This document shows positions 16,381 to 16,613 of a DNA stretch of 64,000 nt, piece by piece. The position numbers were made by a program, and so were the translations under genes. The DNA is from Escherichia coli (GTDB taxonomy: Bacteria; Pseudomonadota; Gammaproteobacteria; Enterobacterales; Enterobacteriaceae). Each line of letters starts with the position of its first letter. Positions within the stretch are counted from its first letter, which is position 1. The notes beneath the pieces were generated by a model, which worked only from the letters and a program-made list of their open reading frames with translations, made no database searches and had not been told where the DNA came from. The DNA is taken from the NCBI RefSeq assembly GCF_002854065.1, contig NZ_CP024147.1. One strand, given 5' to 3'.

Positions 16381-16613
16381 TATTGAGATGCCGGATGCGG
16401 CGTAAACGCCTTATCCGGCCTACGGCTCGGTTTGTAGGCCTGATAAGACGCGCCAGCGTCGCATCAGGCTCCGGGTGCCGGATGCAGCGTGAACGCCTTA
16501 TCCGGCCTACGGCTCGGATTTGTAGGCCTGATAAGACGCGCCAGCGTCGCATCAGGCACAGGATGCGGCGTAAAATGCCTTATCCGGCATTAAACTCCCA
16601 ACAGGACACACTC
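16381..16613. repeat. BIME/REP cluster between nrdA and nrdB (two near-identical ~85-bp tandem units plus a partial REP)
   Basis: Repeated gccggatgcggcgtaaacgccttatccggcctacggctcggtttgtaggcctgataagacgcgccagcgtcgcatcaggc-like units. Confidence 0.75.

Follow-up and report, generated by a model that had tools for sequence, protein, structure and literature searches.

A BIME-2 repeat array in the nrdA-nrdB spacer of Escherichia coli and its alleles among strains

The spacer that separates nrdA from nrdB in the window, i.e., the whole 64,000-nucleotide stretch of Escherichia coli contig NZ_CP024147.1 analyzed here, carries a canonical BIME-2 array made of two tandem Y-linker-Z2 pairs and a degenerate third Y REP. 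This is a feature of an ordinary kind that has already been described, as REP and BIME elements and their copy-number polymorphism are both present in the literature. By analogy with published elements, a BIME-2 located in the transcribed nrdA-nrdB-yfaE spacer quite probably has a local RNA-level role, in which it would set how the nrdA and nrdB-yfaE segments compare in output and stability.

Anatomy of the nrdA-nrdB array

The 233-bp spacer (16381-16613) extends from the end of the nrdA ORF at position 16380 to the nrdB ATG at positions 16614-16616. The gene order in the window, nrdA, nrdB, and yfaE, concurs with the homologous annotation of K-12 MG1655, and every base of the spacer is identical to that of MG1655. 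No repeat feature is listed at this spacer in the K-12 RefSeq record. The array occupies 202 of the 233 bp (16389-16590), with its elements in the order Y(+), Z2(-), Y(+), Z2(-), Y'(+) (Table 1). Tandem Repeats Finder (TRF) delimited positions 16389-16557 as a repeat with a period of 87, 1.9 copies, 96% matches, and a score of 315, and a repeat search recovered direct copies at 87/88-bp spacing together with internal hairpin arms that are 79 to 86% complementary.

The Y and Z2 patterns used for matching, which we take to represent the consensus of each REP type, are concordant with the Rfam naRNA4 consensus. Neither pattern found a match in dinucleotide shuffles of the window, which were used as a chance control, and the pattern search found no Z1 REP in the array. 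The third REP can be aligned with the Y half of the Rfam naRNA4 model, at the cost of four broken pairs, and the lone REP of the Escherichia sp. E1V33 spacer is homologous to it in its 3′ half. The initial annotation had described the spacer as made up almost wholly of two near-identical REP-pair units plus a partial third REP, a description borne out by TRF, the Y and Z2 consensus matches, and the Rfam alignment. Its label, a tandemly duplicated BIME/REP unit, is also appropriate, the Y-S-Z2 unit being present twice as in BIME-2. The near identity of the units holds as well (96%), whereas their length, given as about 85 bp, is in fact 87 and 88 bp.

Table 1. Features of the nrdA-nrdB region in the window
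Feature	Coordinates	Strand	Basis
nrdA coding sequence, stop TGA at 16378-16380	14095..16380	+	ORF list and K-12 annotation of the homologous locus
nrdA-nrdB intercistronic spacer, 233 bp	16381..16613	+	Identical to K-12 MG1655
Spurious in-frame upstream extension of the nrdB ORF, TTG start	16383..16613	+	ORF list; spacer comparison
BIME-2 tandem unit 1, 87 bp	16389..16475	+	TRF; direct repeats D1/D2
Y-type REP 1, ending with CTAC (16420-16423)	16390..16423	+	0 mismatches to Y consensus
Short Y-Z2 linker GGCTCGGTTT, 10 nt	16424..16433	+	Sequence; BIME-2 definition
Z2-type REP 1, GTAG at 16434-16437 on the plus strand	16434..16469	-	0 mismatches to Z2 consensus; Rfam naRNA4 alignment
Inter-unit linker TCCGGGT, 7 nt	16470..16476	+	Sequence
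BIME-2 tandem unit 2, 88 bp	16476..16563	+	TRF; direct repeats
Y-type REP 2, CTAC at 16507-16510	16477..16510	+	1 mismatch to Y consensus
Short linker GGCTCGGATTT, 11 nt	16511..16521	+	Sequence
Z2-type REP 2, GTAG at 16522-16525	16522..16557	-	0 mismatches to Z2 consensus
Degenerate third Y REP (Y')	16558..16590	+	Lacks the 5′ GCC and the CTAC
yoaM, 11 aa, antisense, overlapping the nrdB ATG	16580..16615	-	K-12 annotation of the equivalent position
nrdB Shine-Dalgarno AGGA, 7 nt before the ATG	16603..16606	+	Sequence; predicted mostly unpaired
nrdB coding sequence, true start ATG at 16614	16614..17744	+	ORF list; K-12 annotation

BIME-2 elements are defined by z2 and y REPs in multiple tandem copies with a short linker S (PMC3333891; also PMC8266576). 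Compared with this family, as laid out in the classification of Gilson, Bachellier, and Hofnung and by Ton-Hoang et al. (2012), the array is alike in its Y/Z2 palindromes of alternating inverse orientation, its GTAG and CTAC tetranucleotides, its linkers of 10 and 11 nt, its tandem copies, its extragenic position, and a copy number that varies between strains. REPs of this type also occur in many copies per genome, and the array has none of the long, IHF-site-bearing L linkers of BIME-1. There is thus no essential difference from the family, although the third REP at nrdA-nrdB is degenerate.

A close described relative comes from Rfam, whose RF02564 (naRNA4) model was built from the BIME-2 cluster REP325. 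The match of this model to positions 16437-16507 on the minus strand reached 76.4 bits, above its gathering score (59.5), while the other matches in the array, a second one on the minus strand (53.7 bits) and two on the plus strand (41.4 and 34.3 bits), all fell below the threshold. REP325 is a six-unit BIME-2 located between yjdM and yjdN; it has the Y and Z2 units in common with the nrdA-nrdB array and likewise lies between two co-oriented genes of one operon. However, it has six units rather than two and an inter-unit linker of 13 nt rather than 7 nt, and at nrdA-nrdB the naRNA4-like orientation is antisense to nrdAB and the flanking genes are essential.

An alternative that we consider improbable is that the BIME-2 is a DNA gyrase binding and cleavage site or an HU/naRNA4-type chromosome organizer and not an RNA element. 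In its favor, gyrase binds BIME-2 elements as a class in vivo and cleaves them (Espeli and Boccard 1997, as cited in PMC3333891 and PMC8266576), and the minus-strand naRNA4 match exceeds the gathering score. The antisense orientation of this match argues against it, as does the absence of any gyrase-type BIME at the site in strains carrying the BoxC allele described below. In addition, the function of naRNA4 as an HU-binding, nucleoid-condensing RNA is disputed, REP325 having been found without nucleoid compaction, without REP-REP contacts, and with only about 1 to 2 REP325 RNA copies per cell (bioRxiv 10.64898/2026.03.23.713779).

Two other REP-containing sites were seen in the window. Another Y/Z2 pair lies at positions 9533-9614, with Z2 on the plus strand (about 9533-9569) and Y on the minus strand (9581-9614). 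A degenerate single REP (GTAG...CCTAC) is found at about 18003-18044, just past yfaE, where the nrdAB-yfaE operon ends, and it faces inaA; its match to the Rfam naRNA4 model is weak (24 bits).

Spacer alleles in E. coli and the reading frames that cross them

A 634-bp query spanning the spacer found matches in 5,425 of 5,426 complete E. coli genomes, with at least 80% query coverage in only 3,711 of them. Owing to the REPs that it contains, the query matched 33 places in the median E. coli genome. As the initial annotation had anticipated, REP copy number differs between strains, and alleles with one, two, and three units were recovered (Table 2). The abundance of the 88-bp allele was counted exactly with an allele-specific query, which placed it in 1,684 of the 5,426 complete genomes (31%). 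The frequencies in Table 2 were obtained from two systematic spread samples of the ranked match lists, 59 chromosomal rows each, which were then combined; they are database frequencies and not population frequencies, the collection being skewed to laboratory and clinical lineages. A synthetic seven-unit query was also used for alleles of more than three units, and pieces from two-unit genomes tile its repeated sequence.

Table 2. Alleles of the nrdA-nrdB spacer in E. coli, with their frequency in the combined database samples
Spacer length	Composition	Examples	Rows	Share
233 bp	Two units + Y'	K-12, window	43	36%
88 bp	No REP; BoxC/TMECO hairpin	O104:H4, ST131	35	30%
146 bp	One unit + Y'	Locus L003	20	17%
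226 bp	Two units, different junction	O157	8	7%
189 bp	Two pairs of another REP type	Nissle 1917, LF82	7	6%
322 bp	Three units + Y'	STEC306	2	2%
241 bp	Two units, 8-bp CTACGGCT duplication in a linker	BL21 / E. coli B	2	2%
328 bp	Extra BIME unit + 7-bp ATCAGGC duplication	K-12 substr. GM4792 (locus L129, 2993-3320)	1	about 1%

The alleles of 146, 233, and 322 bp differ from one another by whole units. Bachellier et al. are said to have reported findings in 1997 that agree with such variation of BIME-2 copy number between strains. The unit number could change between one, two, and three through direct-repeat recombination, slippage, or the action of the REP-associated transposase TnpA(REP). Variation in the number of BIME-2 copies at a particular locus between strains and TnpA(REP)-driven recombination have both been published (PMC3333891). 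The 328-bp spacer of K-12 substr. GM4792 could have arisen by a very recent expansion in this laboratory lineage, or it could be an artifact of assembly.

The 88-bp spacer found at positions 401-488 of loci L007 and L008 occupies the same site as positions 16381-16613 of the window, and the whole REP array is replaced in it. Its sequence, CCCTCTCCC-CTTGC-GGGAGAGGG-TTA-GGGTGAGGG, is that of the BoxC/PIT/TMECO type A intrastrand-triplex motif (Holder et al. 2015, PMC4666352). Like the REPs whose place it takes, this motif forms a GC-rich hairpin, but it belongs to an unrelated sequence family, lacks GTAG, and places its hairpin about 25 nt after the nrdA stop. Promoter or terminator activity of BoxC/TMECO is not reported in the literature on the motif (PMC4666352). 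With 31% of the genomes carrying BoxC instead of any REP, strain variation at this site exceeds expectation, yet it belongs to a documented kind of polymorphism.

The flanks of the spacer carry information on how the alleles may have spread. Positions 16141-16380 of the window show no mismatch to an O104:H4 strain with the BoxC allele, and the first mismatch on the right-hand side occurs at position 16655. In contrast, the K-12 flanks differ from the window at positions 16179, 16203, 16278, 16317, 16320, and 16670, whereas the two spacers are identical. The combination of near-perfect O104:H4-like flanks and a K-12-type spacer points to exchange of the spacer as a short patch between different backgrounds. 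Whole-spacer alleles would thus pass between lineages by short-patch recombination.

The allelic series also settles the status of the reading frames that cross the array. The ORF at 16383-17744 starts with TTG, encodes 453 aa, and reads in frame through 77 codons upstream of the nrdB ATG; on the minus strand, another ORF of 93 aa (16271-16552) crosses the array. Both exist because REP sequence is poor in stop codons. The initial annotation had ascribed the apparent N-terminal extension of nrdB to the REP array and not to coding sequence, and both the allele lengths and the annotated start support this view. What favors a genuine longer NrdB isoform with a REP-encoded N terminus is a frame that begins with TTG and stays open over 77 codons; the probability of such an isoform is nonetheless practically negligible. 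The spacers of 88, 146, 189, 226, 241, and 322 bp differ modulo 3, between 9 and 85 codons are open upstream of the ATG across strains, and the spacer sequence is wholly replaced in 31% of E. coli genomes. Moreover, the annotated K-12 start is the ATG preceded by AGGA 7 nt upstream, and the opposite strand is likewise open, as is typical of REP sequence. A coding extension was consequently ruled out, and gene callers should neither extend nrdB nor call the 93-aa minus-strand ORF through the array.

In the case of yoaM, a short gene annotated on the minus strand of K-12, the final three codons and the stop are supplied by the third REP, read as its reverse complement; this small-protein gene therefore owes its stop codon to that REP. 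Weaver et al. report an antisense transcription start lying 174 nt upstream of yoaM, as well as translation from a yoaM-lacZ fusion. If an antisense transcript ran on beyond yoaM, it would contain the array in its naRNA4-like orientation. These observations, along with the better naRNA4 match of the minus strand, are what favors the proposal that the array serves the antisense strand, where it would end or stabilize a transcript starting inside nrdB and encoding YoaM and would supply the yoaM stop. The same ATG opens a frame of 44 aa in the BoxC alleles and of 95 aa in the 189-bp allele, so that the YoaM peptide is not conserved in other alleles, and a scan found no antisense promoter consensus. 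We therefore regard an antisense role as very improbable.

Spacers of other species

A degenerate pattern for the NrdB N terminus retrieved 120 loci (L009-L128) from species-representative genomes. The spacer was delimited in 108 loci from Enterobacterales and Pasteurellaceae, i.e., 107 of these 120 and the K-12 GM4792 locus. Within Escherichia, the spacer of E. albertii is 240 bp long and holds two Y-Z2 units with a complete third Y, and two other Escherichia representatives have one unit in 145 bp. In Escherichia sp. E1V33 (L124), the spacer measures 61 bp and contains a single REP, ATGCCGGATGCGGCGTGAACGCCTTATCCGGCAT, whose two halves match the outermost halves of the K-12 array. This arrangement suggests that Y-Z2 units were added inside or beside an older single REP.

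Salmonella, Citrobacter, Klebsiella, and others carry one REP pair of their own types in about 100 to 114 bp. BoxC-like elements are found in Enterobacter cloacae and Pseudocitrobacter, and a plain GC hairpin is found in C. freundii, where it is followed by TTTATT, and in Serratia. When folded, 99 of the 108 spacers had z < -2 relative to dinucleotide shuffles, with a median of -4.1. Coding controls of equal length gave a median z of -0.5 for nrdA (14 cases < -2) and of -1.4 for nrdB (31 cases < -2). According to these predicted folds, a strong hairpin right after nrdA is nearly universal across the sampled species, while the element that supplies it turns over. The excess of structure in the spacers is an indication, not proof, of selection for structure, given that the species are phylogenetically non-independent.

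Predicted RNA structure and probable local role of the array

The RNA secondary structure prediction proposed in the initial annotation was carried out for positions 16361-16640, which fold at -124 kcal/mol with z = -5.4; none of 200 shuffles folded as well. The minimum-free-energy folds include alternative long-range Y:Y pairings, which makes the in vivo structure uncertain. The nrdB ribosome-binding site is predicted to be mostly unpaired in all nine alleles folded, with a mean P(unpaired) between 0.56 and 0.68, and the ACAGGACAC sequence flanking the nrdB AGGA is retained in all E. coli alleles. Sequestration of this site by the array is thus not supported by the folds. The suggestion that REP copy number could affect nrdB translation finds no backing in these models either, which predict no direct effect on initiation. 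A scan of positions 16381-16613 for promoter or intrinsic-terminator consensus found none, and no U-tract follows any REP of the array; an internal promoter or an intrinsic terminator in the spacer was rejected on these two grounds.

An effect of the REPs on nrdAB mRNA processing, which the initial annotation had also put forward, is plausible and fits published REP work. Transcribed as part of the nrdAB mRNA, the array would form very stable hairpins that act locally. These hairpins may block 3′-to-5′ exonucleases and so protect the nrdA segment, and they may partly attenuate transcription into nrdB-yfaE, as REP325 does in the yjdM-yjdN operon, leaving the nrdB ribosome-binding site outside the hairpin structure. 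Experiments have shown that the intra-operon BIME-2 REP325 attenuates the downstream gene, in part through Rho, and stabilizes the upstream mRNA (bioRxiv 10.64898/2026.03.23.713779).

A further effect may come from the position of the first hairpin relative to the upstream gene. Stop-proximal REPs, a class whose distance to the stop codon is under 16 nt (Liang, Rudd and Deutscher 2015, Mol Cell 58:431), are reported to cause ribosome stalling and reduced output of the upstream gene, and the nrdAB transcript is itself given as a reported case, according to the account of Liang et al. 2015 in PMC12306157. Cleavage of the mRNA and tmRNA tagging at the upstream gene are further marks ascribed to this class. 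In the window, 9 nt (16381-16389) separate the nrdA stop from the first base of Y REP 1, which places this REP inside the under-16-nt class; its hairpin could therefore, under that rule, hold up ribosomes at termination and reduce the output of NrdA. Neither of two CRISPRi screens consulted on the nrdA-nrdB REPs covers the array itself.

Two considerations weigh on a local RNA-level role. The REPs are absent from 31% of E. coli genomes, in which a BoxC hairpin stands in their place, so no REP-specific property can be essential. Besides, NrdA and NrdB assemble 1:1, and a strong attenuator before nrdB would for this reason need compensation.

The same allelic diversity could be read as that of a tolerated selfish or hitchhiking repeat that has no selected role here and whose copy number drifts. 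The alleles of healthy lineages carry anywhere from 0 to 7 REPs (1,684 of the 5,426 genomes having none), the nrdB ribosome-binding site is predicted to be unaffected, and REP effects are strongly context-dependent, with insertion thought to be semi-random (bioRxiv 10.64898/2026.03.23.713779). However, all replacement alleles keep a strong hairpin, be it BoxC, another REP type, or a plain GC hairpin, and the spacer is far more structured than the flanking coding sequence in 108 species. The published REP effect on the nrdAB transcript, as PMC12306157 cites it from Liang et al. 2015, also speaks against a neutral passenger. We hold this explanation to be unlikely, albeit with an appreciable chance of being correct.

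With a local RNA-level role as the preferred reading, a broader proposal can be offered, tentatively, as a possibility short of an even chance. The stem-loop after nrdA may be an ancient, selected part of nrdAB that has repeatedly been replaced by mobile palindromes, and the E. coli alleles, swapped by short-patch recombination, may set a lineage-specific NrdA:NrdB output. If this holds true, the replacement palindromes would comprise Y/Z2 BIME-2, other REP pairs, BoxC/TMECO, and plain terminator-like hairpins. The locus is in any event a natural allelic series, with BoxC, one, two, or three BIME-2 units, or another REP type, in an essential and highly expressed operon, and this series is usable for testing how REP number tunes the ratio of upstream to downstream expression.
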